From positions 1-58,518 of the forward strand of contig JABDAM010000006.1 in the NCBI GenBank assembly GCA_013289145.1: DNA of 58,518 bases. Direction: 5' to 3'. This document shows, one piece after another, positions 7,979 to 32,810 of this stretch. This stretch comes from Alphaproteobacteria bacterium (lineage in GTDB: Bacteria > Pseudomonadota > Alphaproteobacteria > UBA11073). Position 1 is the first letter of the stretch; every line of letters begins with the position of its first letter. The position numbers were made by a program, and so were the translations under genes. The notes below the pieces were generated by a model, which made no database searches, was not told the DNA's origin, and worked only from the letters and a program-made list of their open reading frames with translations.

Positions 7979-8000
7979 TTAACCCTGTAATTCATTTGAA

Positions 8001-8032
8001 AACCCCGGCGGCCATGCTGCCGGGGTTTTTCT
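8001..8032 (+). terminator. rho-independent terminator after pilin paralog 1
   Basis: Stem CCCCGGC (8003..8009) pairs with GCCGGGG (8019..8025), followed by TTTTTC. Confidence 0.75.
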
Positions 8033-8105
8033 TTGCCCCAGTCTTCATAATGTCTTCATAATAGCGTAAATTTTATATGTTACGATTCAGCCAGGACGGT
8101 TTCGA

Positions 8106-8714
8106 ATGTTTTCATCTTTAACATCTAAACTGCGTGGCCTAGGCCGCTCAATTTCAGGTTTTACCCTGCTGGAGGCCACAATCGTTCTGGCGATTTTGGG
8201 AATTGTCGTCGCCGGAATTTGGATCGCGAGCGCCGGCGCCATCAATGCGCAAAAGAAAAAACGCCTTGCTGAGGACGTGCTGACCACCGTCGCCAATATT
8301 CGCGACTATGTCAAAAATATTGATATCCCGGCGGGAAAGTCGCTCACGACCGCGGATATCCAAAACCTGGGATTGTTTCCGGCGGATGTCGTGCGTAACG
8401 GCGTCACCATAAATCCCTACAGCGGAATTTTTCAGGCAACCGCCGATAATAATCAAATCGTCATCATTGTGAATGGGCTGACCACTGACGCTTGCGTGGA
8501 TTTGCTTTACAATCACTTCGGCGGCTCAAGCAATGTCACGACCGGCAGCGCGACCACCGGCAACCAACCGCAAGACATCGGTTTTCTGGGCTATAGCACG
8601 GGCGCGGCATTTCCGCCGCAAAATACCAGCGTGACTTTTACCGCCATAACAACCGCCTGTAATGCGCCGCAGGGATCTGCACTGCCGACCTTCTATCTTT
8701 CGTTCAGCCCCTAG
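8106..8714 (+). CDS. prepilin-type N-terminal cleavage/methylation domain protein (type IVb-like pilin, paralog 2)
   Basis: 18-residue leader followed by G|FTLLEATIVLAILGIVVAGIW. Cys pair TDACVDLL ... TTACNAP. Confidence 0.75.
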   Translation: MFSSLTSKLRGLGRSISGFTLLEATIVLAILGIVVAGIWIASAGAINAQKKKRLAEDVLTTVANIRDYVKNIDIPAGKSLTTADIQNLGLFPADVVRNGVTINPYSGIFQATADNNQIVIIVNGLTTDACVDLLYNHFGGSSNVTTGSATTGNQPQDIGFLGYSTGAAFPPQNTSVTFTAITTACNAPQGSALPTFYLSFSP

Positions 8715-8721
8715 GCCATAA

Positions 8722-9444
8722 ATGATTTTCGCGCTTTTCATTATCTTTGTCTTCGCCGGGATTCTCAGCTTTGCGATGTTCGGTTCGCAGCCGAATGTCG
8801 CCACGCCGGCGGGACAGGTTTATGCCGCCAACATGACTGTTTTCCACCAGGCCGCGATGCTGCAATGGAGCGCGGATTTTACCGCCAATCCCGCCACTTC
8901 TTATACCAACTGCCTTCCCAACAGCACTTGTACCTATTTTATGAATCAACAAATTTATCCGGGCGCGCCCGCAGGGCAGCTTGCGGCTAATTGGCCGGAA
9001 TATAATTCCCTGGTCCCTGAAGGTTCGAGTTCAGGCTGGCAATCTTTTTTAGTCCGCAATATTGACGGCATCAGTTTGAACAACGGCTCGCGCGATTATA
9101 TCCTGACCATCTTTCGTGGCTTTGGCGCGGCCACCAGCACGACCACGACCGGTTCCGGCGCAGGCGGCATTTCTGCCGATAACGTTAGCTTGGGCCTGGC
9201 GAATACCGTGACGGAGCGATCGGGTTTGGGATTACTGAATTGCACCGGCGGAGCGGCCGGTTCGTGTCAATTTACGCGTTTCGCGGCGGACTCCACGGGC
9301 GCCGATAAACCGCTGCAATTCAATGTTGGCATTTTCATTGGCGCGGCTCCCAATTACGCTTTCAGCGCTGCTGACCTTGCCGCTAACAGCACCACCGGCC
9401 TGAACGGCAAAGTCGCGATGATGACCCAGGTTTCCGGGAATTAA
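8722..9444 (+). CDS. membrane-anchored Cys-containing hypothetical protein, possibly PilM-like pilus accessory protein
   Basis: 240 aa with an N-terminal TM helix and no G/FTLxE motif. The segment QVYAANMTVFHQAAMLQW loosely resembles the conserved N-terminal region of R64/PAPI-1 PilM as I recall it. Two Cys pairs. It lies 8 nt downstream of pilin 2. The PilM assignment is weak. Confidence 0.5.
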   Translation: MIFALFIIFVFAGILSFAMFGSQPNVATPAGQVYAANMTVFHQAAMLQWSADFTANPATSYTNCLPNSTCTYFMNQQIYPGAPAGQLAANWPEYNSLVPEGSSSGWQSFLVRNIDGISLNNGSRDYILTIFRGFGAATSTTTTGSGAGGISADNVSLGLANTVTERSGLGLLNCTGGAAGSCQFTRFAADSTGADKPLQFNVGIFIGAAPNYAFSAADLAANSTTGLNGKVAMMTQVSGN

Positions 9445-15078: not shown

Positions 15079-15717
15079 ATGCGCGCTATTTTTTCGTCCT
15101 GCCCCCATAATGCCCGGGGTTTCACACTGGTTGAAGTGGTGGTTGTTCTGTCCATCGTCGGGATCATCATCGGCGGCGTTTGGCTTTATGCCGCCCAGGC
15201 GAATAATGAAGTAAAACAACAAAAACTAACCTCCTTTGTTGTGCAAACCCTCAGTCAGGCGCACCAGTTCTTCAGCAATAATTCCATGCCCGGCACGAGT
15301 GGCGACATCACGGACAACGCCATCATCGCCAATATTTTTCCATCCGAGGTATTGGTGGCAAACGGCGGCGCGACAGCGTCCGGCTATAACGCCCAAGACC
15401 CTTATTTGCTGAACGGAGCGCCCGCGAATTTCACGCTCACTTACACCGTTAGTGCTGGGGGCGGCAGCGGCTCGTCCGCCGGGACGACGGGCATTAACCT
15501 TTTTGTTCCCGCTATTCCCAACGACGCTTGCGTTCATTTGCTTTCCTATCTGGCGAGCAATCCCAGCGTTATCCAGCAATTGGGATTGGTCAGCTATAAT
15601 TCTTCCGCCTCCAGCGGCGGCAATTCCTTTTCAAGCAACGCAAACGTGGCGGCATTCTCCACGTTTTGCGGCCAGCGCGGCGCCAATATGGGCCTTTATC
15701 TCTCCGCCATCATGTAA
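15079..15717 (+). CDS. prepilin-type N-terminal cleavage/methylation domain protein (type IVb-like pilin, paralog 3)
   Basis: MRAIFSSCPHNARG|FTLVEVVVVLSIVGIIIGGVW. Cys pair NDACVHLL ... STFCGQ. Confidence 0.75.
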   Translation: MRAIFSSCPHNARGFTLVEVVVVLSIVGIIIGGVWLYAAQANNEVKQQKLTSFVVQTLSQAHQFFSNNSMPGTSGDITDNAIIANIFPSEVLVANGGATASGYNAQDPYLLNGAPANFTLTYTVSAGGGSGSSAGTTGINLFVPAIPNDACVHLLSYLASNPSVIQQLGLVSYNSSASSGGNSFSSNANVAAFSTFCGQRGANMGLYLSAIM

Positions 15718-15718
15718 A

Positions 15719-16312
15719 ATGCCGAAACGGTTTTCTTCTCCTCTCGCGCGGCAACAAGGCTTCACCTTGATTGAATTGGCGATTGTCCTCAGCATCGTCG
15801 GTGTGATTATCGGCGGCACCTGGTATTACGCGGCGCAAACTTTGAACGATATCAAAAAAAATAAGATTATCGATCAAACCCTGCAAATCATTCAAAACAC
15901 CAAACGCACTTTTGCAAATGTGAATACCGCGCCTGTCAGTTCGACCGCAACCAATCTTACTGCATCCGCCATCACCGCCGGAATTTTTCCAAGCGATATG
16001 ATCGTCAACACAACCCAAGCTGCCGATCCCTATGGCCAGCCCGTGGTTCTGAGCACCTCCAGCGCCCAGATTTCCAGTTTTCATTTGCAATACAATGTTC
16101 GAACCGACGTATGTATCGCGCTCTTAACTAAATTGATTGCCAATACCACCACGCGGAACCGTTATGGCATTATCGGATATAACGCCAATGGCACTTTTAC
16201 GCCCGTTAGTTACAACTCCGTCGTTCCCATCTCAACACTGGCGAGTTCTTGCAGCAGCGCGAATGGCAGCAACACCCTGGTCACAACCGCGGTTGATTTC
16301 AGCTATAAATAA
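15719..16312 (+). CDS. prepilin-type N-terminal cleavage/methylation domain protein (type IVb-like pilin, paralog 4)
   Basis: I use the internal ATG at 15719 (MPKRFSSPLARQQG|FTLIELAIVLSIVGVIIGGTW). Cys pair TDVCIALL ... ASSCSS. The longer track ORF from 15452 overlaps paralog 3. Confidence 0.75.
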   Translation: MPKRFSSPLARQQGFTLIELAIVLSIVGVIIGGTWYYAAQTLNDIKKNKIIDQTLQIIQNTKRTFANVNTAPVSSTATNLTASAITAGIFPSDMIVNTTQAADPYGQPVVLSTSSAQISSFHLQYNVRTDVCIALLTKLIANTTTRNRYGIIGYNANGTFTPVSYNSVVPISTLASSCSSANGSNTLVTTAVDFSYK

Positions 16313-16381: not shown

Positions 16382-18370
16382 ATGAATTCTTACGATGTCA
16401 TCGTCATCGGTGGCGGTCACGCAGGTACTGAGGCCGCTGCTGCTTCCGCGCGTATCGGCGCACGCACGCTACTGATCACGCATAAACGCGAGACTATCGG
16501 CGTCATGTCCTGCAACCCCGCCATCGGCGGTTTGGGTAAAGGCCATTTGGTGCGCGAAATCGATGCGCTCGACGGCATCATGGCGCGCGCGATTGACCAG
16601 TCCGGCATCCAGTTCCGCATGCTAAATGCCAGTAAAGGCGCGGCGGTGCGCGGCCCGCGCGCCCAAGCGGACCGCAAGCTCTACCGACAGGCGGTGCAGG
16701 ATATTCTATTCAATTACCCCAATCTAACAATCATTGAAGGCGCGGTTGAGGATTTGATCATCGCTCCTAATTGTCACCCCGGGCCATCGGCGCGCAAGCG
16801 CCGCATGATTGTCCCGTGGTCCGCCGAGACGCTTGAGCACTGTTTCAAAACCGAAAACACTTTTCTCGCGGAACCACAGACCCCGGGACAAGCCCGGGGT
16901 GACAGTGCGGGAATGCGTTGCGGGGGTATCATCCTCGCTGATGGCACGGAAATCCGCGCAGGTGCCGTTGTTTTAACAACCGGAACTTTCCTTAACGGCC
17001 TCATCCACCGCGGCAAAGAAACCATCCCCGCCGGCCGTGTCGGCGACGCGCCCGCGCTGAAACTCTCAGACCGCCTTGCCGCGCTGAACCTCAACCTCGG
17101 CCGCCTCAAAACCGGCACCCCGCCGCGCCTGGATGGCCGCACGATTGATTGGTCCGTCTGCATTGAACAACCCGGCGATGAAACGCCTATCCCTTTTTCA
17201 TATCTGAATTCTCGCATCTCCGTCCCCCAGATTCCTTGCCATATCACGCATACTACGCTCGCCACTCACCAGATCATCCAAGATAACCTCCACCAATCCG
17301 CCATGTATTCCGGCCAGATCTCCGGCACGGGTCCGCGTTATTGTCCCTCGATCGAAGACAAAATCGTCCGTTTCGCCGACAAAAGCCGCCACCAAATCTT
17401 CCTTGAACCCGAAGGCCTGGATGATCCCACGATTTACCCCAACGGCATTTCCACTTCCCTGCCTACGGACGTTCAAGACCAGATCCTAAAATCTATTCCC
17501 GGCCTAGAAAACGCAATTATATTCCAATATGCCTATGCAATTGAATATGATTATGTTGATCCAAGGGAATTATATTCCACATTAGAAACCAAAAAACTCC
17601 CCGGCCTATATTTGGCTGGCCAGATCAACGGCACCACCGGCTATGAAGAGGCCGGCGCCCAAGGCCTCCTCGCCGGCGCCAACGCCGCCCTGTCCTTGTC
17701 CGGCAAACTCAGCCTAACCATCGGCCGCGACCAAGGCTACATGGGCGTCCTGGTCGACGACCTCATCACCCGCGGCGCGACCGAGCCCTACCGCATGTTT
17801 ACCAGCCGCGCTGAATACCGCCTGAACCTCCGGGCCGATAACGCCGACCAGCGCCTTACCTCCCTGGCTGTCACCCTAGGTCTGGCCGGGCCCGACCGAG
17901 CCGCCGCCTGGGAGGCCAAGTCCACCCTCCTGAATAGCGCTCGTGAAACCTGTTCCAAACTTTCCGCTACCCCAGCCGCCCTGGGAAAAGCCGGTCTGGC
18001 CGTTAACCAAGACGGCATCCGCCGCTCCGTCTTTGACCTCCTGCGCTACCCTGATATCACCTGGGACCGCCTCACCACCATCTGGCCGGAACTGGCTGTC
18101 ATAAATGCCGCCAGTCGCGAACAAATCGAAATCGACGCCCACTATTCCGGCTACCTTGACCGCCAGGAAGCCGACATCCTAGCCTACCGCCGTGACGAAG
18201 CTCTGTCCCTTCCCACCAACCTGGACTACGCCGCTATCGGCAGCCTGTCCCGTGAAATTCAAGACAAACTCTCCACCGCCCGCCCCGAAACCCTAGGCGC
18301 GGCCGCCCGTATCCAAGGCGTCACCCCCGCCGCCGTCACCGCCCTCCTGCGCCATGTCCGTAAAAGATAG
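16382..18370 (+). CDS. mnmG: tRNA uridine 5-carboxymethylaminomethyl modification enzyme MnmG (GidA), carrying an in-frame insertion
   Basis: 662 aa. [40 protein letters not shown] and [17 protein letters not shown]. It is about 44-48 aa longer than expected in the VEDLI...[10 protein letters not shown] loop. Confidence 0.95.
16772..16904. mobile_element. 133-bp element bounded by inverted repeats, lying in frame inside mnmG (MITE/RPE-like)
   Basis: Perfect 13-bp terminal inverted repeats TGTCACCCCGGGC (16772..16784) and GCCCGGGGTGACA (16892..16904). A nested hairpin CCCCGGG-ACAAG-CCCGGGG lies at 16881..16899. The element encodes the extra peptide [43 protein letters not shown]. Confidence 0.65.
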
Positions 18371-18995
18371 TCCAGACGCGAATGTTTCACGTGAAACACT
18401 CGCCCTCTACGAACAAATCCTGAAAGACTGGCAAAGCCGGATTAACCTGGTGTCTGCATCCACCCTATCAGACCTCTGTAACCGCCATTTCCTGGACAGC
18501 CTCCAACTCGTTCCCGTTATCCAATCCATAACGCCTGCCCCGGCGCAGGCCGGGGTTTCATTTGAAACAATCCTGACCGACCTGGGTTCTGGGGCTGGAT
18601 TTCCTGGGATGGTCCTAGCGCTATCTGGTATTCCCAATGTCCACCTCATCGAATCCGACCAGCGTAAATGCGCTTTCCTGAGAGAAATTTCTAGAACCTG
18701 TTTCGATGTTTCACGTGAAACATTCCGTCCCACCATTCATAACGACCGGATCGAGAAATTAAATCTGAAAGCCGATATTATCACCTCTCGCGCTTTTGCT
18801 GATTTGAACAAAACCTTGGAAATCTCGGAAAATCTGCGTCATCCTGATACCCTATACCTCCTCCTAAAACCCCTGGACCTGCAAAAAGAATTGACAGAAG
18901 CCGCGCAAAACTGGTATTTTGACCACGAAATCATCCCTTCTATATCCGACGTCCGGGGTTGTATTCTGAAAATTTCCCGCGTAAATAAAAAGTAG
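18354..18995 (+). CDS. rsmG: 16S rRNA (guanine527-N7)-methyltransferase RsmG (GidB)
   Basis: 213 aa. VSRETL N-terminus, the SAM motif [10 protein letters not shown] and the position between mnmG and parA. Confidence 0.9.
18383..18398. other. parS centromere-like site 1 (TGTTTCACGTGAAACA)
   Basis: Perfect 16-bp palindrome identical to the parS consensus. It lies inside the 5' end of rsmG, where it encodes VSRET, about 600 bp upstream of parA. Confidence 0.85.
18707..18722. other. parS centromere-like site 2 (TGTTTCACGTGAAACA)
   Basis: A second perfect copy of the same 16-mer inside rsmG, again read as VSRET. Confidence 0.85.
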
Positions 18996-19003
18996 GAGCT
19001 ACA

Positions 19004-19789
19004 ATGCCTGCCAAAATAATAGCCATCGCCAACCAAAAGGGCGGCGTGGGCAAGACCACCACCACCGTCAACCTGGCCACCGCCCTGGCGGCTATATATA
19101 AGAAGGTATTGGTCGTAGACCTGGACCCGCAAGGCAATGCCTCCACCGGCTTAGGAATTCCCTCAGCTGCGCGGACTAAAGGCGTTTATGAACTGATCTT
19201 CGACGGCCTGGCTGTATCCGACACCATCGTTAAAACAGAAGTCCCCGGCCTGGACCTGATCCCCGCCACCATGGACTTGTCCGGCGCTGAGATCGAACTG
19301 GTCGGAATAGATGAACGGGAGTTCAAATTAAAGTCCGCTTTCCGCGCCGCCACTGAATATGATTATATTCTTATCGACTGCCCGCCGTCGCTAGGCCTGC
19401 TCACGCTGAATGCCCTGGTCGCCGCGCACTCCGTCCTCGTGCCATTGCAATGCGAGTTCTACGCGCTCGAAGGTTTATCACACCTCTCGCGCACCATCGA
19501 ACGCACGCGCCGCGCGCTGAATCCAAACCTGCATTTCGAAGGCATCGTTTTGACGATGTACGATAAGCGCAATTCCCTCTCGAACGGCGTCGCCGCCGAC
19601 GTGCGCGCCCACTTCCCCGGCATCGTTTACGACACGATGATCCCCCGCAACGTGCGTGTTTCCGAAGCGCCATCACACGGCAAACCCGTGATGATCTACG
19701 ACATGAAATCATCCGGCTCGATCGCCTACATCCAATTGGCGAAAGAATTTTTGGCAAGACAAAACAATACGCCCGCCGAAGCAGCCTGA
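19004..19789 (+). CDS. parA: chromosome partitioning ATPase ParA
   Basis: 261 aa. Deviant Walker A IAIANQKGGVGKTTT, and DLDPQGNAS. Confidence 0.95.
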   Translation: MPAKIIAIANQKGGVGKTTTTVNLATALAAIYKKVLVVDLDPQGNASTGLGIPSAARTKGVYELIFDGLAVSDTIVKTEVPGLDLIPATMDLSGAEIELVGIDEREFKLKSAFRAATEYDYILIDCPPSLGLLTLNALVAAHSVLVPLQCEFYALEGLSHLSRTIERTRRALNPNLHFEGIVLTMYDKRNSLSNGVAADVRAHFPGIVYDTMIPRNVRVSEAPSHGKPVMIYDMKSSGSIAYIQLAKEFLARQNNTPAEAA

Positions 19790-19795
19790 TAATCC

Positions 19796-20584
19796 ATGAA
19801 AGTTTTGATTAGCCCAATCAATGTTGCAGAAGCCGTCATTGCGCATGATTGCGGCACGGATATTATCGATATCAAAAATATCGATGCCAAAGTGACGGTG
19901 AATGGTGTAGCTGGCGGCTCGCTTGGCGCCAGCACAGCGGAAATTATTCGCGAAGTCATTACAACGATCAGCGATCCCAAGGTAATCTTTAGCGCAACAC
20001 TCGGCGATTTATCCGGCGATGATATTCCCCTTGCCCCTGCGCGCGCGCAAGATTTCATCGGCTGCGGCGTGAACTATATCAAGGTTGGCCTGTGTGATTT
20101 TGAAAATCCCGAACAAGCCACACGATTGATGAAAGCGGTGCGTGCGGTTTGTCCAAAAGAAATCACGCTGGTTGCCGCAGGCTACGCCGATGCCGCGCGC
20201 TTCGGCGGATTAAAACCGAACCAATTAATTAAAATCGCTTATCAATCCGGCGCGGATATGGTGATGCTGGATACTTTTGTTAAAGATGGAAAAACTTTAT
20301 TGCACGCCTTATCACCCAATGAATTATTCGGATTTACGAAAGCCGCGCATGATTGCAGGCTTGGTGTCGCCCTGGCTGGCTCAATTGGTATAGATGATTT
20401 TCCAATACTGCATGTCGTAGGCGCGGATGTTGTTGGTTTGCGCGGCGCGGTATGTGATCAGCATGATCGCACGACCATGATTAATCCCGATAAAGCCAAA
20501 GCTTTGATGGCCGCAGCTCGGGCGTTTCAATTTCAACCGGCGCCGTCACAAAGCTTCACCGCAGCCGCGCCGCATGCTTTTTAA
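19796..20584 (+). CDS. MfnB/DUF556-like protein ((5-formylfuran-3-yl)methyl phosphate synthase family)
   Basis: 262 aa. LISPINVAEA..G.DIIDIKN, YIKVGL, VAAGYADA, MLDTFVKDGKTLL, ALAGSI and VGLRGAVC match my recollection of the MfnB (UPF0264) TIM-barrel family. It is on the same strand as parA and parB, 6 nt after parA and 12 nt before parB. Confidence 0.65.
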   Translation: MKVLISPINVAEAVIAHDCGTDIIDIKNIDAKVTVNGVAGGSLGASTAEIIREVITTISDPKVIFSATLGDLSGDDIPLAPARAQDFIGCGVNYIKVGLCDFENPEQATRLMKAVRAVCPKEITLVAAGYADAARFGGLKPNQLIKIAYQSGADMVMLDTFVKDGKTLLHALSPNELFGFTKAAHDCRLGVALAGSIGIDDFPILHVVGADVVGLRGAVCDQHDRTTMINPDKAKALMAAARAFQFQPAPSQSFTAAAPHAF

Positions 20585-20596
20585 TGAGGAGATCCT

Positions 20597-21760
20597 ATGT
20601 CTGCAACGAATACCCCTGAACAAACCGCGGCGGAAAAAGCGGCGATAGGATTGCAACAGGCGATCGCGGATTCGACGCGTGTGATGGTGAAGGCGCATGC
20701 GGTCTTGGCGGCGGAAAAAACCACGGAAAAACCGAGCGCGCCTAAACGCGGGTTGGGGCGGGGGCTGGATGCCCTGTTCGCGGATGGCGAACAAGGGCGG
20801 GAGGCAAGAAGCGAGAAGCGAGAAAGTGAAATTGTGAATGCAGCGGTTGTGAAGCAAGAGGCGGGATCTCACGCCTTGCCTCTCGCTTCACAATCTCCGC
20901 GCACGCTGCCCATCACCGCGCTCATCCCCACGCCGTTTCAGCCGCGGAAAACTTTTGGCGCGGAGGATATGGAATCTTTGGTGCAATCCATTCATATGCA
21001 TGGGATTTTACAGCCGTTGCTCGTGCGTGCAGCCCCGGGTCAGCCGGATAAATATGAAATCATCGCGGGCGAGCGGCGTTGGCGGGCGGCGCAGCAGGCG
21101 CGGTTGCATAATGTCCCGGTCATTATCAAAACTTTGGATGACCGCCAGGCATTGGAACTCGCGCTGATTGAAAATATTCAGCGCGCGGATCTGACGCCGA
21201 TTGAAGAGGCCGAAGGCTATCAGCGCTTGATCGAAGAATTCGGCCACACGCAAGATGCGCTGGCGAAAGTCGTCGGGAAATCGCGCAGTCATATGACGAA
21301 TACGTTGCGTCTGCTGCAATTGCCCGCGGGCGTGCGCGAGATGGTGGGGCGCGGCGAATTGTCTGCGGGCCATGCGCGCGCGCTGGTCGGCCGCGCGGAC
21401 GCCCAAGAAGTCGCGGACATGGCGGCGCGCAAAAAATGGTCGGTGCGCGACATGGAAAAATTCACGCGCAAGCAAAAACAGCCGGTGGATTTCGCGCGCA
21501 TGTCGATCCAGGAACTCAACGCGCGGCGTCATGCCAAGAATGATAAAGATAATCCCTTTGGGCCTTTTCCGGGCATCGATCACGCCATGCCCAAAAGTCC
21601 GGATGTGGCGGCGCTGGAGGATGAAATGTCCTCGCTGCTGGGGCTGCGGGTGGAAATCCATTCCATGGCCGATGCCTCTGGTGTGCTGGGCGTGCATTTT
21701 TCCTCGCTCGATCAACTGGATGATTTGCTGCAAAAACTGACGCGGGCGAGCAGGGGATAA
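20597..21760 (+). CDS. parB: chromosome partitioning protein ParB (long form)
   Basis: 387 aa. RGLGRGLDALF, GILQPLLVR, IIAGERRWRAA and the HTH region. The N-terminal linker contains a Rep-B copy. An SD (GAGGAG) lies upstream. Confidence 0.93.
   Translation: MSATNTPEQTAAEKAAIGLQQAIADSTRVMVKAHAVLAAEKTTEKPSAPKRGLGRGLDALFADGEQGREARSEKRESEIVNAAVVKQEAGSHALPLASQSPRTLPITALIPTPFQPRKTFGAEDMESLVQSIHMHGILQPLLVRAAPGQPDKYEIIAGERRWRAAQQARLHNVPVIIKTLDDRQALELALIENIQRADLTPIEEAEGYQRLIEEFGHTQDALAKVVGKSRSHMTNTLRLLQLPAGVREMVGRGELSAGHARALVGRADAQEVADMAARKKWSVRDMEKFTRKQKQPVDFARMSIQELNARRHAKNDKDNPFGPFPGIDHAMPKSPDVAALEDEMSSLLGLRVEIHSMADASGVLGVHFSSLDQLDDLLQKLTRASRG
20801..20895. repeat. Rep-B GCGAGA-type element inside the parB linker region
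   Basis: GAGGCAAGAAGCGAGAAGCGAGAAAGTGAA is followed by the imperfect hairpin TTGTGAAGCAAGAGGCG-GGATCTCA-CGCCTTGCCTCTCGCTTCACAA. It is read in frame as EARSEKRESEIV...HALPLASQS. Confidence 0.6.
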
Positions 21761-21864: not shown

Positions 21865-22452
21865 ATGGCTTCGACTTCTTTGCCTTCAAACTTGCAAATC
21901 CACGTTCGCGACCTTGTCCCCGATATGATCAGACTGTTGGATGCGGTTTATCCCACGCATTCTGCGATAGATGCCGCCATCAGAAGGGAACTGCACAGTG
22001 AGCAGGCGGATATTTTTACCCTCGCGCGCGGTTGGGTGATCGCGAAAAAGAATTTTCATGATTTTCGCGAGAATATGCATTCAAAGGAAATTGAAAGTTT
22101 TAGCGCAGATCTGGCTTCTTTGTTCTCGGAAATAAACTATGGGCTCCAATGCGCGGGCGCAAGCCAGGTGACAAAGCTTATGCAGGATGCAAACCCGGAA
22201 AAGGTCAGCGATCCCGTGATCTATGGCATGAGGACTTTTTATCAAAGCCGGTCTTGGCCCGAAGGGGCGCGCGAGCATTCTTTGACGGAGACGTTGGGCA
22301 GTGTCATGGCTTGGGATATCAATCCCGTTGATTTTGGCAAGCTTTTGGGAATTCCAGAGGAAAAAAGTTCTGAAGTTGCAGCAATCATTACTTCTCGTCC
22401 GCCGCCGCCTCAGAAAAAGCGAAAAGAGTGGGGCGGTTGCGTTCTGCCTTAA
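21865..22452 (+). CDS. hypothetical protein
   Basis: 195-aa ORF with an SD-like AAAGGAAAC upstream. No family recognised. Pro/Lys-rich C-terminal tail. Confidence 0.5.
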   Translation: MASTSLPSNLQIHVRDLVPDMIRLLDAVYPTHSAIDAAIRRELHSEQADIFTLARGWVIAKKNFHDFRENMHSKEIESFSADLASLFSEINYGLQCAGASQVTKLMQDANPEKVSDPVIYGMRTFYQSRSWPEGAREHSLTETLGSVMAWDINPVDFGKLLGIPEEKSSEVAAIITSRPPPPQKKRKEWGGCVLP

Positions 22453-22477
22453 TGCGTTTCCGGCACGGGGAATTCGC

Positions 22478-23596
22478 ATGAAACGCTTCGCCGCTATCGC
22501 AGCAGTAAGTCTTGCCGGCGCAAACGTCCTGTTCGCGCAAGGACAATCCAAAAGCGCGCCCATCAGAAACCTTTCCGCGCAGGCCTCAGCGCGTCAGGCT
22601 TCGGATTCCTGGCGGGAGGCTTGCTGGAAAGCGCAAAACCAGAAATTATCCGCGGCGGAATTGCTGGGCACGATAGAAACCGTGATGAAAATCCCCTCGC
22701 ACGGCCCCTGCTGGTTCGCGCGCGCCACCGCGCCGCAACAAATTCAATTCATCCGTTCCTGCCTGTTCAAACAGTTTCAAGTTTTGCTGAAGAATAAAGA
22801 TACCGGCACCAAAGAAAGCCTCAAATCCGCCGGCATGATGCTGGCGCAGGGCATTCACGATCATTTCCATGCGCCGCAAAACTATCTACGCTGGACCAAT
22901 CAAGCGGACTGGAATTTCAAGGCAGCTTTGGCCGGGATGCCAGAATATAAAAACATGACCGATCGGCTCTACGCCAAGGGATCGGAAACGCTCCATTTGA
23001 AAGAGCTGGGCAAAATCGCGGAGCTTTATTTTTTAACCCATCACATGGAAAACGCCGATCTTTTGATTCACGCGCAAGATTCCAACAACTTAAACATGGG
23101 CGAAACCGACAAGTATGAAAATCTTTTTATCCTATCCTTCCATCCTGATCTGATTAAAACCAATCCGGCAACTTCTTCGTCTCAGATATTTGAAAGCAAG
23201 AATCATATTTGGGATGAAGCATTGGCGACGGGAAGCCATGAATTACGGCATGCTTCTCAAGCCTATCTCGATTCTGCGCAAACCGATCCTGATACGCCGA
23301 AAACCAGCATTTTCCGGTCGCCTGAATTCGGTTTGATGGCAAAACTTTATGATGGGAAAAGCTACAAAATTTGGGCCAAGATTTTAAATTTATGGCCGCT
23401 GGAGGATAAGGTGGGATTTAAGTTTTATAAGCTCATCCCGCATGAAAAAGACGCTTTTGAACATGAAATTATGGCGCGTGATTTAAAAGACGACAGCCTT
23501 GTGATCCACATGGCAAAGAGATCGCCGCCTACTTCCCGATACAAAAATCCGCAAAAATCCGGTCGAGCAAATCCTCCACATCCACACGGCCCGTGA
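22478..23596 (+). CDS. secreted hypothetical protein with HExxH motif (putative zinc metallopeptidase-like)
   Basis: I use the internal start MKRFAAIAAVSLAGANVLFAQG (signal peptide). The motif SHELRHA has further His/Glu residues (IPHEKDAFEHE) about 60 aa downstream. The 3' end overlaps the convergent mnmE by about 68 nt, so the exact stop and tail are uncertain. Confidence 0.5.
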   Translation: MKRFAAIAAVSLAGANVLFAQGQSKSAPIRNLSAQASARQASDSWREACWKAQNQKLSAAELLGTIETVMKIPSHGPCWFARATAPQQIQFIRSCLFKQFQVLLKNKDTGTKESLKSAGMMLAQGIHDHFHAPQNYLRWTNQADWNFKAALAGMPEYKNMTDRLYAKGSETLHLKELGKIAELYFLTHHMENADLLIHAQDSNNLNMGETDKYENLFILSFHPDLIKTNPATSSSQIFESKNHIWDEALATGSHELRHASQAYLDSAQTDPDTPKTSIFRSPEFGLMAKLYDGKSYKIWAKILNLWPLEDKVGFKFYKLIPHEKDAFEHEIMARDLKDDSLVIHMAKRSPPTSRYKNPQKSGRANPPHPHGP

Positions 23597-24860
23597 TCCG
23601 GCCCAGGGCGCGCAGGGCAAGGCGCAGGTCTTCGGCGCGGAGTTCAGGCAGATTCGCAGTGGCAGCGCGTTGCAAAGCAGCAAGAGATTCTTCCAGCGCC
23701 GCGCGGTGTCGTGCTCGCGTCAGGCTGGGCGTTTCGCGGCTTTGATAAAAGATTTTTTCCAAGCGTGTTTTGATGGCGGCGAGGAGTTCGGGGATGCCGG
23801 CGGCGGTGTGAGCCGATAGAAACGAGAGGCGAGAGGCAAGGGGCGGGAAATTTTCATCTCGCTTCTGATCACATTTTGTCACAACCACAATCGCATTTTC
23901 GTCGATTAAATCGCGCGTGGCTTTATCAGGTTCCGCGCCGCTGTCGAACAAACATAATTTCAAATCCGCATGCTCGGCGCGGGCGCGGGCGCGGCGGATG
24001 CCTTCGGATTCAATGGCGTCGGTGGTTTCGCGCAGACCGGCGGTGTCCAGCAATGTTACGGGCCAGCCGCCCAGATCCAAATGCACTTCCAAAACATCGC
24101 GCGTTGTGCCCGCGATATCGGTGACGATGGCCACGTCGCGCTGCGCCAGCGCATTCAGCAGCGTCGATTTCCCCGCATTGGGCGCGCCGACAATGGCGAT
24201 GGTGACGCCGTCACGCAGCCGCTCGCCGCGGTGATTGTCGGACAGGTGGTTTTGCAATTCGGCGATTAATTGTTCGATCTGTGCTTGCTGCGCGGCGATA
24301 ATATCAGGCGGCAGATCTTCATCGGCGAAATCAATGTCGGCTTCGGCGTGGGCGAGCAGGGCGGCGAGGCGGTCCGCCCAGCCGTGATACAAATCCCGCA
24401 GGGTGCCTGAGAGTTGCGAGAGCGCCTGGGTGCGCTGCTGCACGGTTTCGGCGTGGATCAGGTCGGCAATGGCCTCGGCCTGGGTCAGATCCATTTTGTT
24501 GTTTTCAAAGGCGCGGCGCGTGAATTCGCCGGGCTCAGCCAAGCGCAGGCCGGGCATCTTGCCGAGCGCCGTTAACAGTCCTTGCGTTGTCGCCCGCCCG
24601 CCGTGGAGGGTGAGTTCCATCACGTCTTCGCCGGTAAAGGAGTTGGGCGCGGGAAAATAAATCGCGATGCCGTCGTCGATCGCCGCGCCGGTTTCAGGGT
24701 CGCGCAACATCACGCGCACGGCCTGGCGCGGCAGGAAATCCGTTTTTTGTGATAGCTTTTGCCCCGCCGCCTGCGCCGCCGGGCCGGATAGGCGCACCAC
24801 CGCCAGCGCACCCACCCCGGGCGGCGTTGAAAGGGCGAAGATGGTGTGAATTGAAGTCAT
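23529..24860 (-). CDS. mnmE: tRNA modification GTPase MnmE (TrmE)
   Basis: 443 aa. G1 motif GAPNAGKSTLLN, DTAGLRE, and the C-terminal FCIGK tetrapeptide. Confidence 0.95.
   Translation of the reverse strand: MTSIHTIFALSTPPGVGALAVVRLSGPAAQAAGQKLSQKTDFLPRQAVRVMLRDPETGAAIDDGIAIYFPAPNSFTGEDVMELTLHGGRATTQGLLTALGKMPGLRLAEPGEFTRRAFENNKMDLTQAEAIADLIHAETVQQRTQALSQLSGTLRDLYHGWADRLAALLAHAEADIDFADEDLPPDIIAAQQAQIEQLIAELQNHLSDNHRGERLRDGVTIAIVGAPNAGKSTLLNALAQRDVAIVTDIAGTTRDVLEVHLDLGGWPVTLLDTAGLRETTDAIESEGIRRARARAEHADLKLCLFDSGAEPDKATRDLIDENAIVVVTKCDQKRDENFPPLASRLSFLSAHTAAGIPELLAAIKTRLEKIFYQSRETPSLTRARHRAALEESLAALQRAATANLPELRAEDLRLALRALGRITGRVDVEDLLDRIFADFCIGK
23823..23868. repeat. Rep-B GCGAGA-type element inside mnmE
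   Basis: CGAGAGGCGAGAGGCAAGGGGCGGGAAATTTTCATCTCGCTTCTG. Its reverse complement contains GCGAGATGAAAATTTCCCGC, matching 36384..36403 (GCGAGATGAAAATTCCCGC) apart from a single indel. It is read in frame as QKRDENFPPLASRLS. Confidence 0.6.
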
Positions 24861-24936: not shown

Positions 24937-25434
24937 ATGTATAGCCGTTTCTCTGAACAGACTTTCCGGGCATCCGAATTGATTTCCTCTTTGTACCCCG
25001 CACCCACGGACCAAAAACTTACTAATTTTGAAAACAGCAAAGATGTCCTAATCGCAAGCACGGGCATGGTGTTTTGGAACGTGGAAAATATGGACAAGGT
25101 CATTGCCTTTCCCCAAAAATACGATTTGTTTTGTGATCATGGCGTTTTAATTCGGGACAAAATTGATGTGATGCGTGAAGAGGTTATGAGCCGGGATCCT
25201 ATTTTGTGGGACGCGACCGCCGTAAAAGAAATGTTATATCAGCAAGTCAGCGTTTATAAAGATACGGCTAGATTTCTTTACGGATTGCTTCAATCCATAA
25301 CGGAGGCCCCCCTGAAGAACGCTTTTAAGGACCAGGCTAATTTTACTTTCTGTTGCGCCGAAACAACAGAAATTATGTGGAAAAAGACGCCGACAGGGCA
25401 TTTATTGTTGCCGCCGCCGGATTTTAGACTTTAG
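24937..25434 (+). CDS. hypothetical protein (AT-rich orphan)
   Basis: 165-aa ORF. No family recognised. It overlaps the 3' end of the convergent ferredoxin gene by 11 nt. Confidence 0.45.
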   Translation: MYSRFSEQTFRASELISSLYPAPTDQKLTNFENSKDVLIASTGMVFWNVENMDKVIAFPQKYDLFCDHGVLIRDKIDVMREEVMSRDPILWDATAVKEMLYQQVSVYKDTARFLYGLLQSITEAPLKNAFKDQANFTFCCAETTEIMWKKTPTGHLLLPPPDFRL

Positions 25435-28747: not shown

Positions 28748-30265
28748 ATGAAAAATAGGAAATTACCTCATTGGAGATGGAATATGGTTCACTTTCCCGA
28801 CACGATTTTAACCACCGATGATATGGTTTTGGCGCTTGCCAACCTGAAATATCAGATCGATGAAAAAAAACTCAGCCCGGATCAGATTACAGCGCTGGTA
28901 GCAAAGTCCGGTTTGGAGAAAGAAGCGGGACTTAAAGGCTTTTTGCTCTCAGATGTGAGCAAAATGAATGGCGGCTATCGGGACGCGGCGGATGCATTTT
29001 TAAAGAAAGATGCGGATTTCAAAGATTCCGCCAAATGGGACGAAGTGAAAAAACTCGAAGAACAGGTGGAAAAAAGCGCGCCCGCAGCCAAGCATGATGC
29101 GCCGGCGGGAAAAGCCGATGATATTAATCTGCATGGTTTTTCCGATGATGCGGCGAAACTGGCGCGGCAGGGCTTTGATATGATGATGCGCGGGTTCGAT
29201 GCCTATCCCAACCCCAATCGCGCCAACGCGCCGCAACATTACCGCGCCAAATTGATCGAAGTGGAATCAAGCGCCAAAGATCCCAACGTGTCTTTTTTCG
29301 CGGGTCGTTTTATTTTCCATCTGGATGCCGGAATGGCCACAAATTCCGAAGCGCATACGGGCGAATATATCGAACGTTATAAGGGCAAAGCCTACGACGA
29401 TCTGGCGGAAAAATTAAAAAATGATGCGAAGGCGAAAATCGATGCCGAAGCGGCGGCGAAGAAATTAGCCGATGACGAGGCCAAGAAAAAAATAGAGGCC
29501 GAGGCAGCCGGAAAAAAACTGGCTGAGGAAGAAGCCAAGAAAAAGCTTGATGCTGAGACAGCGGCGAAAAATTTAGCCCAAGTCAAAAAAGAACTGGAAG
29601 CGGCCGCGATCGTGGCGGCTTCGCAAAAAAAATCCCTGCTGGACGAACCGGAAAAAACCGGCGAAAAAATGGAGTTCGGCAAAAAGCATGAAATCAAAAG
29701 CCGCTTGAAATTATTGTCAGATCCAAATTACGCAAAACAAGAAATCGATAAACTTAAAGGCTATCCGGATGGACAGGTCGTTGTATTTGATTCCATTCCA
29801 GATCAAGGAAATCGCAACAAACCGGACTTTGGTGATAAATACGTTAAAGTTGGAGATGGAAAAGACGGTGTTTGGTACAAAATTACTGATGAAGTAAAAG
29901 GAAAACATGACCGCAATGCCTTAGCTCATACCCGGGGCGATGGCATTGCCTCCGATGCGCTGATTGATAAAATGACGCCTAAGCTACAAACAGGTTCTGA
30001 CCTTGCAGATACTTCTGCGCGCGATGGCGGTTCCGCGCCGACGCTCAGAGATAAAATCACCATGAAATACGGCGTTATTTCCAAGGTGGTGATTGATGCA
30101 ACCACCGGCGATCTGGTTGAATTCAAAAAAGAAGCCGCAACGCAACAGGCGCGCATCGACCTTGAAAATAATGCGAAGAACAGCGTTGAAGTTAAGATCG
30201 GCGGTCAAAAAATGGTTGCGGAAAAAGTGGCGGGTGTGCAGCTGCAAGATTATAGTCCGAATTAA
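28748..30265 (+). CDS. hypothetical coiled-coil protein with internal 18-aa repeats
   Basis: 505-aa ORF (alternative start MVHFPD at 28784). The central region KIDAEAAAKKLADDEAKK / KIEAEAAGKKLAEEEAKK / KLDAETAAKNLAQVKK is repeated. No signal peptide or recognised domain. Confidence 0.55.
   Translation: MKNRKLPHWRWNMVHFPDTILTTDDMVLALANLKYQIDEKKLSPDQITALVAKSGLEKEAGLKGFLLSDVSKMNGGYRDAADAFLKKDADFKDSAKWDEVKKLEEQVEKSAPAAKHDAPAGKADDINLHGFSDDAAKLARQGFDMMMRGFDAYPNPNRANAPQHYRAKLIEVESSAKDPNVSFFAGRFIFHLDAGMATNSEAHTGEYIERYKGKAYDDLAEKLKNDAKAKIDAEAAAKKLADDEAKKKIEAEAAGKKLAEEEAKKKLDAETAAKNLAQVKKELEAAAIVAASQKKSLLDEPEKTGEKMEFGKKHEIKSRLKLLSDPNYAKQEIDKLKGYPDGQVVVFDSIPDQGNRNKPDFGDKYVKVGDGKDGVWYKITDEVKGKHDRNALAHTRGDGIASDALIDKMTPKLQTGSDLADTSARDGGSAPTLRDKITMKYGVISKVVIDATTGDLVEFKKEAATQQARIDLENNAKNSVEVKIGGQKMVAEKVAGVQLQDYSPN
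29435..29595 (+). repeat. about 3 tandem copies of a 54-bp coding repeat
   Basis: AAAATCGATGCCGAAGCGGCGGCGAAGAAATTAGCCGATGACGAGGCCAAGAAA is followed by two diverged copies, all in frame. Confidence 0.7.
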
Positions 30266-30349: not shown

Positions 30350-31618
30350 TTATTTGCTTTGCATAGAATCAAAGAAATCCTGATTGGATTTGGTCGTTTG
30401 CAGTTTATCCAGCAGGAATTCAACCGCATCGACCGTGCCCATGGGCGACAGGATCCGGCGCAACACCCACATTTTGGATAGGGTGCTTTTGTCGACCAAA
30501 AGTTCCTCTTTCCGCGTGCCGGATTTCGCGACGTCGATGGCCGGGAAGACACGCTTATCGGCGACTTTGCGGTCGAGGATGATTTCGCTGTTACCCGTCC
30601 CTTTGAATTCCTCGAAGATTACTTCGTCCATGCGGCTGCCGGTATCGATCAGGGCGGTAGCGATAATGGTCAATGAACCGCCGTCCTCAATATTCCGCGC
30701 AGCGCCGAAAAAGCGTTTCGGTTTTTGCAAGGCATTGGCATCAACACCGCCCGTCAGGACTTTACCAGATGACGGCACCGTCGTGTTATAGGCGCGGCCG
30801 AGGCGGGTGATACTATCGAGCAAAATGACGACATCGCGGCCATGTTCGACCAGGCGTTTGGCTTTTTCAATCACCATTTCGGCGACTTGCACGTGGCGTG
30901 TTGCCGGTTCGTCGAAGGTTGATGATACCACTTCGCCTTTCACGGTGCGGGACATGTCCGTGACTTCCTCCGGACGTTCATCAATCAGCAGGACCATCAA
31001 ATAAACTTCAGGATGATTGGTCGTGATGGAATTCGCAATCGATTGCAGCATCATGGTTTTACCCACGCGCGGCGGCGCGACGATCAGGGCGCGCTGGCCT
31101 TTACCAATCGGCGCGACCAGTTCGATAATCCGGCCCAGCATTTCCTTGTTCTTCGCGCCGGCTTTTTGCTCGATCTCAAGCTTCATTTTTTCGTTGGGAT
31201 AAAACGGCACCAGGTTGTCAAAGGCGATACGGTGACGCAGTTTTTCCGGATCCTCGAAATTCACCTGTTCAATGGTGTCGATGGCAAAATAACGATCATT
31301 ATTTTTCGGCGGGCGTAATTTGCCGCTGACGGTATCACCCGTGCGCAGGCCGAATTTTTTGATCATGTCCGGCGGGACGTAAACGTCGTCGGGACCGGCC
31401 AGGTAATTTTCCTCTGCACTGCGCAGGAAACCGAAACGGTCGGGCAGAACTTCGATCACGCCGGAACCTTCTATGGTTTTGCCGTCTTCGGCCATGACCT
31501 TTAGGATATGGAACAGCATCTGCTGGCGCGGCAGGTTGGCCGGGCTTTCGATGTCTAGTTCTTCGGCGATTTTAAGCAGTTCAGGAGCGGACTTGCGCTT
31601 CAGTTCATCAAAATTCAT
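30350..31618 (-). CDS. rho: transcription termination factor Rho
   Basis: 422 aa. FGFLR, Walker A PPRVGKT and the RNA-binding and ATPase motifs throughout. Confidence 0.97.
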
Positions 31619-31755
31619 ACGTTACTCGTGCAGGGGAGAGGTTCAGAGGTGAAATAACACCAGTTTGTTTGGAAAAATCACGTAAAGAAGATAGAATATC
31701 AACGTGACGGGCCCATTTATAGGCATTTTGGACGCGAAGGTCAAGCGGAAAGTCT

Positions 31756-31806
31756 CATATATTATATATAATAATATTTATATTAAATATAATGATGTTG
31801 TTATTG
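31756..31806. other. AT-rich tract (putative DNA unwinding element)
   Basis: CATATATTATATATAATAATATTTATATTAAATATAATGATGTTGTTATTGG is nearly all A/T in an otherwise GC-balanced locus, directly flanking the DnaA-box cluster. Confidence 0.6.
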
Positions 31807-31853
31807 GTGGCGGGATAACGGGGATAAGCCTTATTCCACCAATTATCCCGCAT

Positions 31854-31862
31854 TTATCCACA
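31854..31862 (+). promoter_or_regulatory. perfect consensus DnaA box TTATCCACA
   Basis: Exact match to the 9-mer consensus. Confidence 0.8.
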
Positions 31863-32168
31863 GGGCGTGAGCCCGGGATAACTTTTGGGACAAAAGCGCA
31901 ACGAAATCTATAAACTATTGAAAAGTAAAGATAATTTTATTGCGTTAGCCTGGGGATAAATTTTATTGCCAAAAGTTATCCCAAAAAATACCCATGACAT
32001 TATCATTGGGGATAAATCCATGTCGGCATCATGCAAATAGGGGATAAAAGCCATGAAACCTATTCAAAAGGGATAATTTAAAGTTATCCCCAGACTTATC
32101 CCGCATCTTATCCGAAACTATTAATTTCCTTGAAGTTCAGGGGATTTTTGCGTCACAATGGCTTTGTA

Positions 32169-32810
32169 ATGACCCTACATTTAACGACAGACCAGCTTGC
32201 AGATATTCTATTCCAGCGCCCGGGGCGTGTGACCGAAGGGATTTTGGAGGAGCGCTCGGCTTTTGAAAAATTATCAGACCGGCTAATCTGGGAAGATCAC
32301 CGCCTGTCACGCCCCTATAAGGAAAATCCCATCCGACGCTGGGCAGCAAAGCATATGTTAGTTTTTGATGAACATGCGCAGGCGAAAGAGAATCCGCGCT
32401 CCCTGCGCCACGCGATTTTAGAGTTAAAAGCGCTTGGCTTCTCCTATGAGCAACTAAATAAATTTCGCTATCTATCGAAACAGTTTATGCTCGGCCTTGA
32501 TCCTTCTCCAATTCTTGAAAAGACAAAGAAATATTTTGGGGAAAGAGAAAAAATGATCTGGGAAAAAGGTAGCTTAGATTCTTATTGGTCATATTCATGG
32601 TCTGATAAAAGCGTTCTGGGGGCTGCCATTATCTGTGTGGAAAATGACCAGAAGCGGGTTGTATCAACCCATTTTTTCCCCGGCGAACTTGAGGAAGAAG
32701 CTTATGCCCTATTAAAAGAAAACATTCGGGTTCGCCATGAACGACAACCCGATAAAGTTCCCCTTATTCCGGCCTGCGCGCGCCATGTGCCCAAGGGATT
32801 AGAGGCGTAA
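32169..32810 (+). CDS. hypothetical protein (origin-adjacent orphan)
   Basis: The ATG at 32169 (MTLHLTTDQ) is preferred over the TTG at 32130. 213 aa, AT-richer than the backbone, no family recognised. Confidence 0.5.
   Translation: MTLHLTTDQLADILFQRPGRVTEGILEERSAFEKLSDRLIWEDHRLSRPYKENPIRRWAAKHMLVFDEHAQAKENPRSLRHAILELKALGFSYEQLNKFRYLSKQFMLGLDPSPILEKTKKYFGEREKMIWEKGSLDSYWSYSWSDKSVLGAAIICVENDQKRVVSTHFFPGELEEEAYALLKENIRVRHERQPDKVPLIPACARHVPKGLEA

Follow-up and report, generated by a model that had tools for sequence, protein, structure and literature searches.

Organisation of the locus

We examined a 58,518-nucleotide (nt) stretch of an alphaproteobacterial genome (contig JABDAM010000006.1 of assembly GCA_013289145.1, hereafter the window), in which an open reading frame (ORF) of 262 amino acids, ORF262, lies between the chromosome partition genes parA and parB. 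ORF262 encodes a divergent relative of MfnB, the archaeal 4-(hydroxymethyl)-2-furancarboxaldehyde phosphate (4-HFC-P) synthase, and we favour the view that it is an accessory gene, inserted at a hot spot for such events. The ORFs of the window were taken from a list with translations and identified by Pfam and NCBIfam profile searches. An earlier note on this DNA, made from its letters alone, had described ORF262 as lying on the same strand as its two neighbours, with gaps of 6 and 12 nt and a GAGGAG motif ahead of parB, and this is what the sequence reads (Table 1). The end of parA reads GCC TGA TAATCC ATG, where ATG is the start of ORF262, and the end of ORF262 reads TTT TAA TGAGGAGATCCT ATG, where ATG is the start of parB; parA and parB are thus 807 nt apart, ORF262 included. 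The ATG at 19796 is the true start of ORF262, since the N-terminus that it gives (MKVLISPI) matches the family consensus. The genes mnmG, rsmG, parA, ORF262 and parB form a single co-oriented string on the plus strand, with mnmG first.

Table 1. Positions of ORF262, its junctions and the surrounding genes in the window.
Feature	Coordinates	Strand	Identification and remarks
mnmG (gidA)	16382..18370	+	662-aa ORF; 52-63% identical to MnmG of alphaproteobacterial relatives; GIDA Pfam recorded for syntenic genes
rsmG (gidB)	18354..18995	+	PF02527 GidB, E 1.3e-32; holds the parS cluster
parA (Soj-type partition ATPase)	19004..19789	+	PF13614 (AAA_31), E 6e-64; PF01656 (CbiA)
Left junction, 6 nt (TAATCC), parA stop to ORF262 start	19790..19795	+	Read in the sequence
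ORF262, divergent MfnB-like PF04476 class I aldolase / TIM barrel	19796..20584	+	262 aa, ATG start
Insertion unique to ORF262, 9 residues (K32-G40)	19889..19915	+	Alignment gap in MJ1099 and in all 119 best homologues
Right junction, 12 nt, with the parB GAGGAG Shine-Dalgarno site	20585..20596	+	Read in the sequence; stands in place of the ~36-56-nt ancestral spacer of relatives with an empty slot
parB (Spo0J-type)	20597..21760	+	ParB_N, HTH_ParB and ParB_C domains; TIGR00180, 197 bits
mnmE	23529..24860	-	Convergent with parB; Pfam TrmE_N and MnmE_helical

The genes that flank ORF262 belong to a genuine chromosomal ParABS system. ParA is of the Soj type, ParB has the three domains of Spo0J-type proteins, and two perfect copies of the parS consensus TGTTTCACGTGAAACA lie at 18383..18398 and 18707..18722, within the coding sequence of rsmG and just upstream of parA. 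A third copy with three mismatches is found at 18554-18569, also in rsmG; these three matches in the window compare with 0.28 expected, and none of 100 shuffled sequences gave three. In ParB, about 48 residues, an N-terminal extension typical of the clade, precede the conserved KRGLGRGLDALF motif that interacts with ParA. The order mnmG-rsmG-parA-parB, the presence of parS near parA and the KRGLGRGLDALF motif are all those of the canonical alphaproteobacterial gidA-gidB-parA-parB (soj-spo0J) operon. The window differs from this canonical operon in that a foreign gene stands between parA and parB, so that the first is not directly followed by the second, and in that the whole block, here and throughout its clade, is inverted relative to mnmE and rho.

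It is extremely unlikely that this gene order is an assembly chimera or a product of multiple displacement amplification that is present in no cell. Such an origin would fit the small size of the source run, a soil metagenome that yielded 12 Mb of contigs, and an 89-nt fold-back contig nearby, inside parB. Against it, an independently assembled Logan contig from a soil-metagenome run matches positions 16877-20867 at 100% identity, with zero differences and an even depth of 16, and spans both junctions; the reading frames and ribosome-binding sites are tidy, and analogous insertions occur at the same point in two other lineages. The parA-ORF262-parB order is therefore confirmed not to be an assembly artefact. 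An imperfect inverted repeat in parB (20797-20900, with arms of 20-23 nt that are 80-83% complementary) coincides with a break between Logan contigs and with the low-depth 89-nt fold-back contig, and this feature is probably an artefact of amplification or assembly rather than biology.

ORF262 is a full-length member of the MfnB family

The seven motifs on which the earlier note had based its assignment of ORF262 to the MfnB/DUF556 family (LISPINVAEA, DIIDIKN, YIKVGL, VAAGYADA, MLDTFVKDGKTLL, ALAGSI and VGLRGAVC) are all present in the translation, and both the profile search and the predicted structure bear the assignment out. ORF262 matches Pfam PF04476 (4-HFC-P synthase/MfnB, formerly DUF556/UPF0264) with an E-value of 1.9e-56 and 191.8 bits, against a cut-off of 22.4, and the match covers residues 3-237 of the protein and positions 1-227 of the 228 in the profile. 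It aligns to MJ1099, the MfnB of Methanocaldococcus jannaschii (PDB 4rc1/4u9p), with an E-value of 3e-36 and about 40% identity. An AlphaFold (AF2) model built on 73 homologues has a mean predicted local distance difference test (pLDDT) score of 93.5 and a predicted template-modelling (pTM) score of 0.89; its top Foldseek match is 4rc1 (E 2.7e-24, TM-scores of 0.83/0.92, root-mean-square deviation of 1.7 A), and the next folds, CutC and RPE, are far behind with E-values of about 1e-9.

Four residues of MfnB are reported to be essential, two lysines and two aspartates (Asp25, Lys27, Lys85 and Asp151), of which Lys27 is the Schiff-base residue, and Lys155 binds the substrate (PMC6604932, PMC11365854). 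The alignment places Asp25, Lys27, Lys85, Asp151 and Lys155 of MJ1099 opposite D25, K27, K96, D159 and K163 of ORF262. ORF262 is thus a full-length PF04476 triose-phosphate isomerase (TIM) barrel in which the catalytic tetrad is kept, and it has its Pfam family, its fold, the essential residues and the equivalent of Lys155 in common with MJ1099. Apart from the loop differences described below, ORF262 differs from MJ1099 in having a bacterial host and no methanofuran gene context, and in being known here from its sequence and a model. The last 18 residues form a C-terminal tail that is disordered in the model and runs up to the ribosome-binding site of parB.

ORF262 is an outlier of its family

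Although family membership is clear, ORF262 is far from every other sequence of the family. A search of 5.8 billion proteins gave 1900 homologues, the best of which is only ~52-57% identical, and ORF262 forms a cluster of its own among 1.84 billion representatives of clusters at 50% identity, with the next match at E 3e-47. Its best NCBIfam matches are the two MfnB equivalog models, but it scores under the cut-off of both (205.7 vs 304 bits for NF002575 and 178.1 vs 341 bits for NF002573); its nearest homologues reach E 3.7e-101 on NF002575.

The divergence includes an insertion that is found in no other member. An extra loop after the Schiff-base lysine, which had been noticed from the sequence alone, amounts to nine residues (32-40) relative to MJ1099 and the 119 best homologues. 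These nine residues make up the larger part of a predicted beta-hairpin (residues 32-41, with DSSP strands at 32-35 and 38-41 and a pLDDT of ~89-91) that directly follows Lys27-Asn28, and in the comparison with MJ1099 they appear as a 9-residue hairpin two residues past the Schiff-base lysine. The spacer between this Lys-Asn pair and the GSLG motif is 12 residues long in ORF262 and 3 residues long in 117 of the 118 close homologues and 91 of the 92 diverse representatives that could be matched. Two further motifs have changed: FPW, at the start of helix 1 after GSLGA, is TAE in ORF262, and the KPGT loop after strand 2 (xPGT across the family) is DIPL. Judging from the topology of a TIM barrel, the altered loops would lie on the catalytic face, beside Lys27.

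Overall, of 86 positions with a conservation of at least 90%, ORF262 departs from the family at 17, more than any other of 73 sequences, for which the sample median is 1. These departures are concentrated in the beta1-alpha1 and beta2-alpha2 segments. One reading of such a count is that ORF262 is a decaying neutral passenger, a pseudo-enzyme that is tolerated as long as the expression of parB is undisturbed. This reading would also accommodate the lack of partner genes, the disordered tail that reaches the parB ribosome-binding site and the confinement of ORF262 to one lineage. We nevertheless regard it as quite unlikely, given that the ORF is intact across the full length of the profile, that all of the catalytic residues and 69 of the 86 highly conserved positions are kept, and that the model is confident even in the inserted hairpin. 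Moreover, the deviations are clustered in two adjacent loop/helix segments rather than scattered, and therefore look like directed remodelling with the chemistry kept, not like drift or random decay. In this respect ORF262 is a natural experiment, in which the catalytic tetrad is kept and a new hairpin stands at the face of the active site, and which may show how the active site of an unusual, multi-step furan-forming enzyme can be re-tuned.

The base composition of ORF262 also sets it apart. Its GC content at third codon positions (GC3) is 0.475, compared to 0.695 for parA and 0.652 for parB, and is within the range of the other unannotated, probably accessory ORFs of the window. By this measure, the gene looks foreign.

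Pathway context and neighbourhoods of homologues

In Methylorubrum extorquens, the MfnB homologue Orf22 is encoded in a cluster with orf21 (mfnE), orf9 (mfnF), fhcABCD and the genes for tetrahydromethanopterin (H4MPT) (PMC8141765). Orf22, found in this and other H4MPT-dependent proteobacteria, is a bacterial member of the same family as ORF262. We scanned the ~57 ORFs of the 58.5-kb window against Pfam and found no methanofuran, methylofuran or H4MPT family gene among them, as the earlier note had already remarked. The context of ORF262 thus differs from the 'archaeal-like' cluster of Orf22 in that mfnE, mfnF, fhcABCD and the H4MPT genes are missing within 58.5 kb; ORF262 itself is also absent from syntenic relatives. 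The neighbours are instead housekeeping genes typical of an origin-proximal region, including purD, type IV pilins, ald, lptE, rho, a DUF299 gene, aroE, coaE, secB, dnaQ, gyrB, dnaN, lptABC and kdsD, among others.

The closest homologues point in another direction. The proteins P0002 (from a Paludibacterium metagenome-assembled genome, MAG), P0003 and P0009, with relatives in Massilia and Streptomyces, are the closest sequences to ORF262 (50-57% identity, in the same NCBIfam subgroup, NF002575), and their genes head a conserved string that encodes a kinase resembling isopentenyl phosphate kinase (108 bits, under the cut-off of 120), two polyprenyl synthases and a UbiA prenyltransferase. The strings of P0002 and P0003 additionally encode an Asn-synthase-like amidotransferase and a haloacid dehalogenase (HAD) phosphatase, and one string has a gene that resembles those for 3-dehydroquinate synthase II (DHQS-II) and 3-amino-4-hydroxybenzoic acid (3,4-AHBA) synthase. 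Contrary to ORF262, which stands alone and has lost these motifs, the homologues of the prenyl-type clusters keep FPW, KPGT and the 3-residue spacer; no gene of the AA_kinase, UbiA or polyprenyl synthase families was found among the ~57 ORFs of the window.

The composition of the prenyl-type cluster suggests a prenylated furan or aromatic product, and the automatic name 'MfnB' may mislead for its members. Our literature search on MfnB homologues in bacterial clusters and on 4-HFC-P/DUF556 found no account of such clusters or of their product. They were seen in Paludibacterium and other MAGs, at L083:8001-16726, L085:8001-16744 and L087:128-8868; the amidotransferase and HAD phosphatase genes are present in the first and the third, and the second has the DHQS-II/3,4-AHBA-synthase-like gene and a reductase gene instead. 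A further arrangement is seen in an alphaproteobacterial MAG (L089:8556-11572), where an MfnB-like gene without FPW (it has APVE) lies between genes for an aldehyde dehydrogenase and a short-chain dehydrogenase. As these neighbourhoods are unrelated to one-carbon (C1) metabolism, the uses of the PF04476 family in bacteria are several and go beyond C1 coenzymes. The earlier statement that the bacterial members belong to H4MPT-dependent methylotrophs thus holds for Orf22 (PMC8141765), but not for the closest homologues of ORF262, which lie in prenyl-type clusters or between the two dehydrogenase genes. A search of genome contigs with the ORF262 protein gave one locus, at 44% identity and in a different context.

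These observations bear on whether ORF262 could be a true MfnB orthologue that supplies 4-HFC-P to a methylofuran/H4MPT C1 pathway whose genes lie elsewhere in the genome, with the par operon providing constitutive expression. The retention of the equivalents of Asp25, Lys27, Lys85, Asp151 and Lys155, the ranking of the two MfnB equivalog models as best NCBIfam matches and the use of Orf22 by proteobacterial methylotrophs (PMC8141765) would all be expected of such an orthologue. ORF262 scores under both equivalog cut-offs, however, has neither the FPW nor the xPGT motif seen across the family, and has an insertion of its own at the face of the active site; the mfnB gene of methylotrophs clusters with mfnE, mfnF and fhc, none of which is present in 58.5 kb; six syntenic relatives of the clade lack the gene at this position, and the nearest homologues are found in non-C1 contexts. 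We therefore consider true orthology unlikely. ORF262 fails the tests for the name MfnB on three counts, namely the equivalog cut-offs, the loop motifs and the pathway context.

The parA-parB slot in relatives

ParA and ParB are generally taken to be encoded by adjacent, tightly co-regulated genes, and our survey of spacing agrees with the earlier note on their adjacency. Each of the 80 nearest GTDB species representatives has parB next to parA, the aligned parts of the two being no more than 180 nt apart, and no MfnB-like gene is present in the 5-kb flanks of these 80 parA loci. This outgroup comprises the genomes with the most similar ParA, at most 68-69% identical, and consists of Rhodospirillales-like and other Alphaproteobacteria. 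Closer relatives were found by a ParB protein search and contig look-ups; six were readable, giving, together with the window, a clade of seven lineages of uncultured soil Alphaproteobacteria. A scan of metagenome contigs with ParB peptide patterns returned distant ParB proteins only (partial matches of at most 54% identity) and did not find the clade. The ParA proteins of the clade are 82-87% identical to that of the window and 82-94% identical among the relatives, and their ParB proteins are 54-64% identical to that of the window. Both ParA and ParB of the window have their nearest relatives in the clade, so only the gene in the middle is foreign.

All six relatives share the order pilin-mnmG-rsmG-parA-[slot]-parB with a convergent mnmE, where the slot is the position occupied by ORF262 in the window; in the longer contigs this block is preceded by ald/lptE or dnaA and followed by genes for a radical-SAM protein and a phosphoribosyltransferase. 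Four of the relatives (L090, L092, L142 and L144) have no gene in the slot and have spacers of ~36-95 nt as called, or ~36-56 nt once the start of the L090 parB is corrected. In L091 it holds a gene for a 359-aa YhcG/DUF1016 PD-(D/E)XK nuclease with gaps of 10 nt on both sides, which PADLOC identifies as the candidate defence gene PDC-S02 (E 1e-156). In L143 it holds an 88-aa gene that overlaps a PIN-domain gene (27.4 bits, cut-off 23.6) by 8 nt, followed by a 191-aa gene without a family match; the first two of these genes are like a toxin-antitoxin pair. The 51-nt spacer that follows this cargo keeps a motif, TTCCTATT, that is also present in the spacers of the empty sites. The cargo of each of the three filled slots runs in the direction of parA and starts 6-10 nt after the parA stop codon (9-10 nt in L091 and L143).

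Hot spots are places in the genome where a pair of core genes brackets accessory genes that differ between relatives, defence islands included. The slot conforms to this definition in that different, unrelated genes, or none, lie between orthologous flanks in the relatives. It resembles known hot spots and defence islands in that the same core pair brackets unrelated cargo, including a candidate defence nuclease and a toxin-antitoxin-like pair, and is empty in other relatives. It is unlike them in lying inside a normally adjacent, co-regulated pair, in having co-oriented and tightly joined cargo and in lacking the hallmarks of recombinases. No integrase was found at the slot, and the junctions of 6 and 12 nt leave no room for an attC-like element; no tRNA gene was found in the window, and the direct and inverted repeats around ORF262 are short and at chance level only. 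A literature search found no description of an interrupted chromosomal parAB.

The variation of the slot also bears on the two possibilities that the earlier note had raised to account for the arrangement, that an enzyme is deliberately co-expressed with the segregation machinery or that a paralogue has been recruited to a different role. We consider it very unlikely that ORF262 was recruited to segregation or to the control of segregation, for instance as a moonlighting partner of ParA or ParB or as a link to central carbon status. What favours such a role is the position of the gene and its predicted co-transcription with parA and parB. The sister lineages, by contrast, have the same ParABS system with a slot that is empty in four and occupied by unrelated genes in two, none of the 80 outgroup genomes has such a gene, and the protein is a plain TIM barrel with no added domain or DNA- or ParB-binding feature. 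Neither possibility thus fits the sister lineages; because their slot is empty four times and holds unrelated cargo twice, the comparison supports the conclusion that the position of ORF262 reflects a landing place of foreign genes rather than any link in function with ParAB.

The nature of the other cargoes raises the question of whether the slot is a mini defence or addiction island, in which ORF262 would be a metabolite-based defence or toxin-like enzyme that, for instance, produces a reactive furan aldehyde or drains triose phosphate upon infection. The PDC-S02 nuclease and the PIN-domain toxin with its small overlapping upstream gene are suggestive in this regard, as are the foreign-looking composition of ORF262 and the fact that it is a single-gene cargo without pathway partners. 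The argument is one of guilt by association from two other cargoes, however, and ORF262 has no match in PADLOC-DB v2 at E <= 0.01. The family is known as biosynthetic only, the nearest homologues are in biosynthetic-looking clusters, and the constitutive expression of a toxic activity from the operon would be costly. We thus see a defence function as a decidedly weak candidate, about as improbable as the decay considered above.

Several other features of the slot region vary in the clade. The parA-parB spacer is conserved between L090 (6906-7000) and L092 (6945-7000), with the sequence …AATTTG[TC]TCCTATT[TC]ATCAAAAT…TTATAACA…, in which -35/-10-like hexamers and a Shine-Dalgarno site can be made out by eye; on this visual reading, parB may have its own promoter in the empty-slot spacer. 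L143 keeps part of this spacer downstream of its cargo (2027-2077), and the window and L091 have lost it. The N-terminal extension of ParB varies in length: L092 and the three loci that carry cargo have a long one, and P0124, P0125 and P0128 have a short one. The interval between parB and mnmE (21865..23596 on the plus strand of the window) is a second variable slot, with ORFs at 21865-22452 (195 aa) and ~22475-23596 (~373 aa) that have a GC3 of 0.53-0.54 and no Pfam or PADLOC match; the second of them starts, by eye, with the signal-peptide-like MKRFAAIAAVSLAGANVLFA. L090, L092, L142 and L144 have no gene in this slot, and L091 has an unrelated 159-aa ORF there (L091:3109-3588).

A model for the acquisition and expression of ORF262

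The explanation that we favour, and hold to be probable if far from certain, is that ORF262 is a horizontally acquired accessory enzyme gene that sits in an insertion hot spot, is expressed by read-through, is likely an aldolase and has no role in segregation. According to this model, foreign genes would land within ~10 nt of the parA stop codon at a hot spot specific to the clade, and ORF262 would be transcribed by read-through from the gid-par operon, as its strand, the gaps of 6 and 12 nt and the lack of intervening promoter- or terminator-like signals suggest. A simple scan of the plus strand from the start of parA to parB (19.0-20.6 kb) found no promoter-like or terminator-like site, and the counts of such sites across the whole 8-kb region are at or under the expectation from shuffled sequences. 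The sequence of parA-ORF262-parB would thus fit a single transcript. No Shine-Dalgarno site was found in the 6-nt gap between parA and ORF262, and because of this short gap without a ribosome-binding site, translation of ORF262 would likely be coupled to termination at the parA stop codon, with parB keeping a ribosome-binding site of its own.

Lys27 of MfnB forms a Schiff base with D-glyceraldehyde-3-phosphate. Going by its sequence and model, ORF262 is most likely still a class I aldolase, in which a phosphorylated triose would be bound to Lys27 as a Schiff base and Asp25, Lys96 and Asp159 would serve as acid/base groups. The remodelled loops, i.e. the hairpin and the changes of FPW to TAE and of KPGT to DIPL, would be expected to alter substrate or product specificity, or oligomerisation. 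The product would then feed an accessory, strain-specific function rather than methanofuran or methylofuran synthesis, and ORF262 would have no mechanistic part in segregation. Of the two findings that the earlier note would have taken as a refutation, neither turned up: the profile match is strong, and no close relative carries the gene beside a methanofuran pathway in the databases searched.

A number of points weigh against this explanation. The sequence was found in only one DNA run, and the expression of the gene as part of the operon is read from sequence features. The analysis covers 58.5 kb, and a methylofuran/H4MPT or prenyl-type cluster may lie at a distance elsewhere in the genome. 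No hallmarks of a mobile element (repeats, integrase or tRNA) flank ORF262, and the sample that defines the hot spot is small, with seven lineages, two of which derive from a single sequencing run. That the catalytic residues and the whole reading frame are kept shows selection for some function but does not tell which function. Lastly, the model does not account for a switch in strand composition that coincides with the parA/ORF262 junction (see below).

A bolder idea, to which we give a low probability, is that the parA junction is a dedicated gene-capture site or mini defence-addiction island and that ORF262 is a conflict enzyme of a new, metabolite-based and single-gene type that evolved from a furan-forming aldolase. 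If a gene-capture site does exist here, new cargo would gain constitutive, origin-proximal expression. Within one clade, a par operon of the essential type repeatedly tolerates from one to three foreign genes, which raises the question of how the balance of ParA to ParB is kept. The slot is a compact hot spot without a known mechanism, with co-oriented and tightly joined cargo, and could be surveyed across metagenomes.

Strand composition, replication origin and inversion of the operon

The mean GC3 skew of the plus strand changes from -0.17 in the 17 genes to the left of 19.8 kb to +0.16 in the 33 genes to the right (p = 4e-8), with values of -0.50 for mnmG, -0.34 for parA, -0.18 for ORF262 and +0.33 for parB. 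The cumulative G-C curve has its minimum at 19.7 kb, at the parA/ORF262 junction and 12 kb from the DnaA-box cluster. In syntenic relatives this flip is only weakly seen. Two ideas that this pattern suggested were rejected. The first, from the opposite skews of parB and parA, was that ORF262 and parB had been acquired together as one foreign block; we discarded it because ParB is closest to the ParB proteins of clade members with an empty slot (64-66% identical to P0122), and because a milder difference in skew between parA and parB is also seen in empty-slot relatives. The second, from the minimum of the cumulative GC skew, was that a replication origin lies in the slot. The gaps of 6 and 12 nt are too small for this, and the only DnaA-box cluster of the window is at 31.85-32.09 kb.

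This cluster has four sites, at 31854 (perfect), 31951, 32007 and 32084, and is located in an AT-rich stretch (31600-32130, 65-67% AT) between rho, on the minus strand, and the DUF299/RP001-aroE-coaE string. The interval between rho and the DUF299 gene is the canonical position of the origin in Alphaproteobacteria. An ORF called at 32130-32810 next to this stretch has a TTG start, no Pfam match and a GC3 of 0.46, and may not be a real gene.

The outgroup has mnmE immediately ahead of mnmG, with both genes on one strand, at 45 of 45 loci; in the clade, mnmE is instead downstream of parB and convergent with it. The inversion of the mnmG-parB block is therefore specific to the clade (the window, L090, L091, L092, L142, L143 and L144). 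If the origin is indeed at ~32 kb, the inversion would set the gid-par operon head-on to replication.

Elsewhere in the window, the ORFs at 47162-48274, 28748-30265, 37732-38340 and 24937-25434 have no Pfam match and a GC3 of 0.41-0.50, compared to 0.60-0.75 for housekeeping genes; one of them has dnaN and an EAL-domain gene as its neighbours. These low-GC3 ORFs are probably further foreign insertions in the origin-proximal region. Finally, the segments 7367-9444 and 15079-16312 contain several genes with a prepilin N-terminal methylation motif, one of them with a bundlin-like domain, and one such pilin gene directly precedes mnmG both in the window and in all long contigs of the clade.

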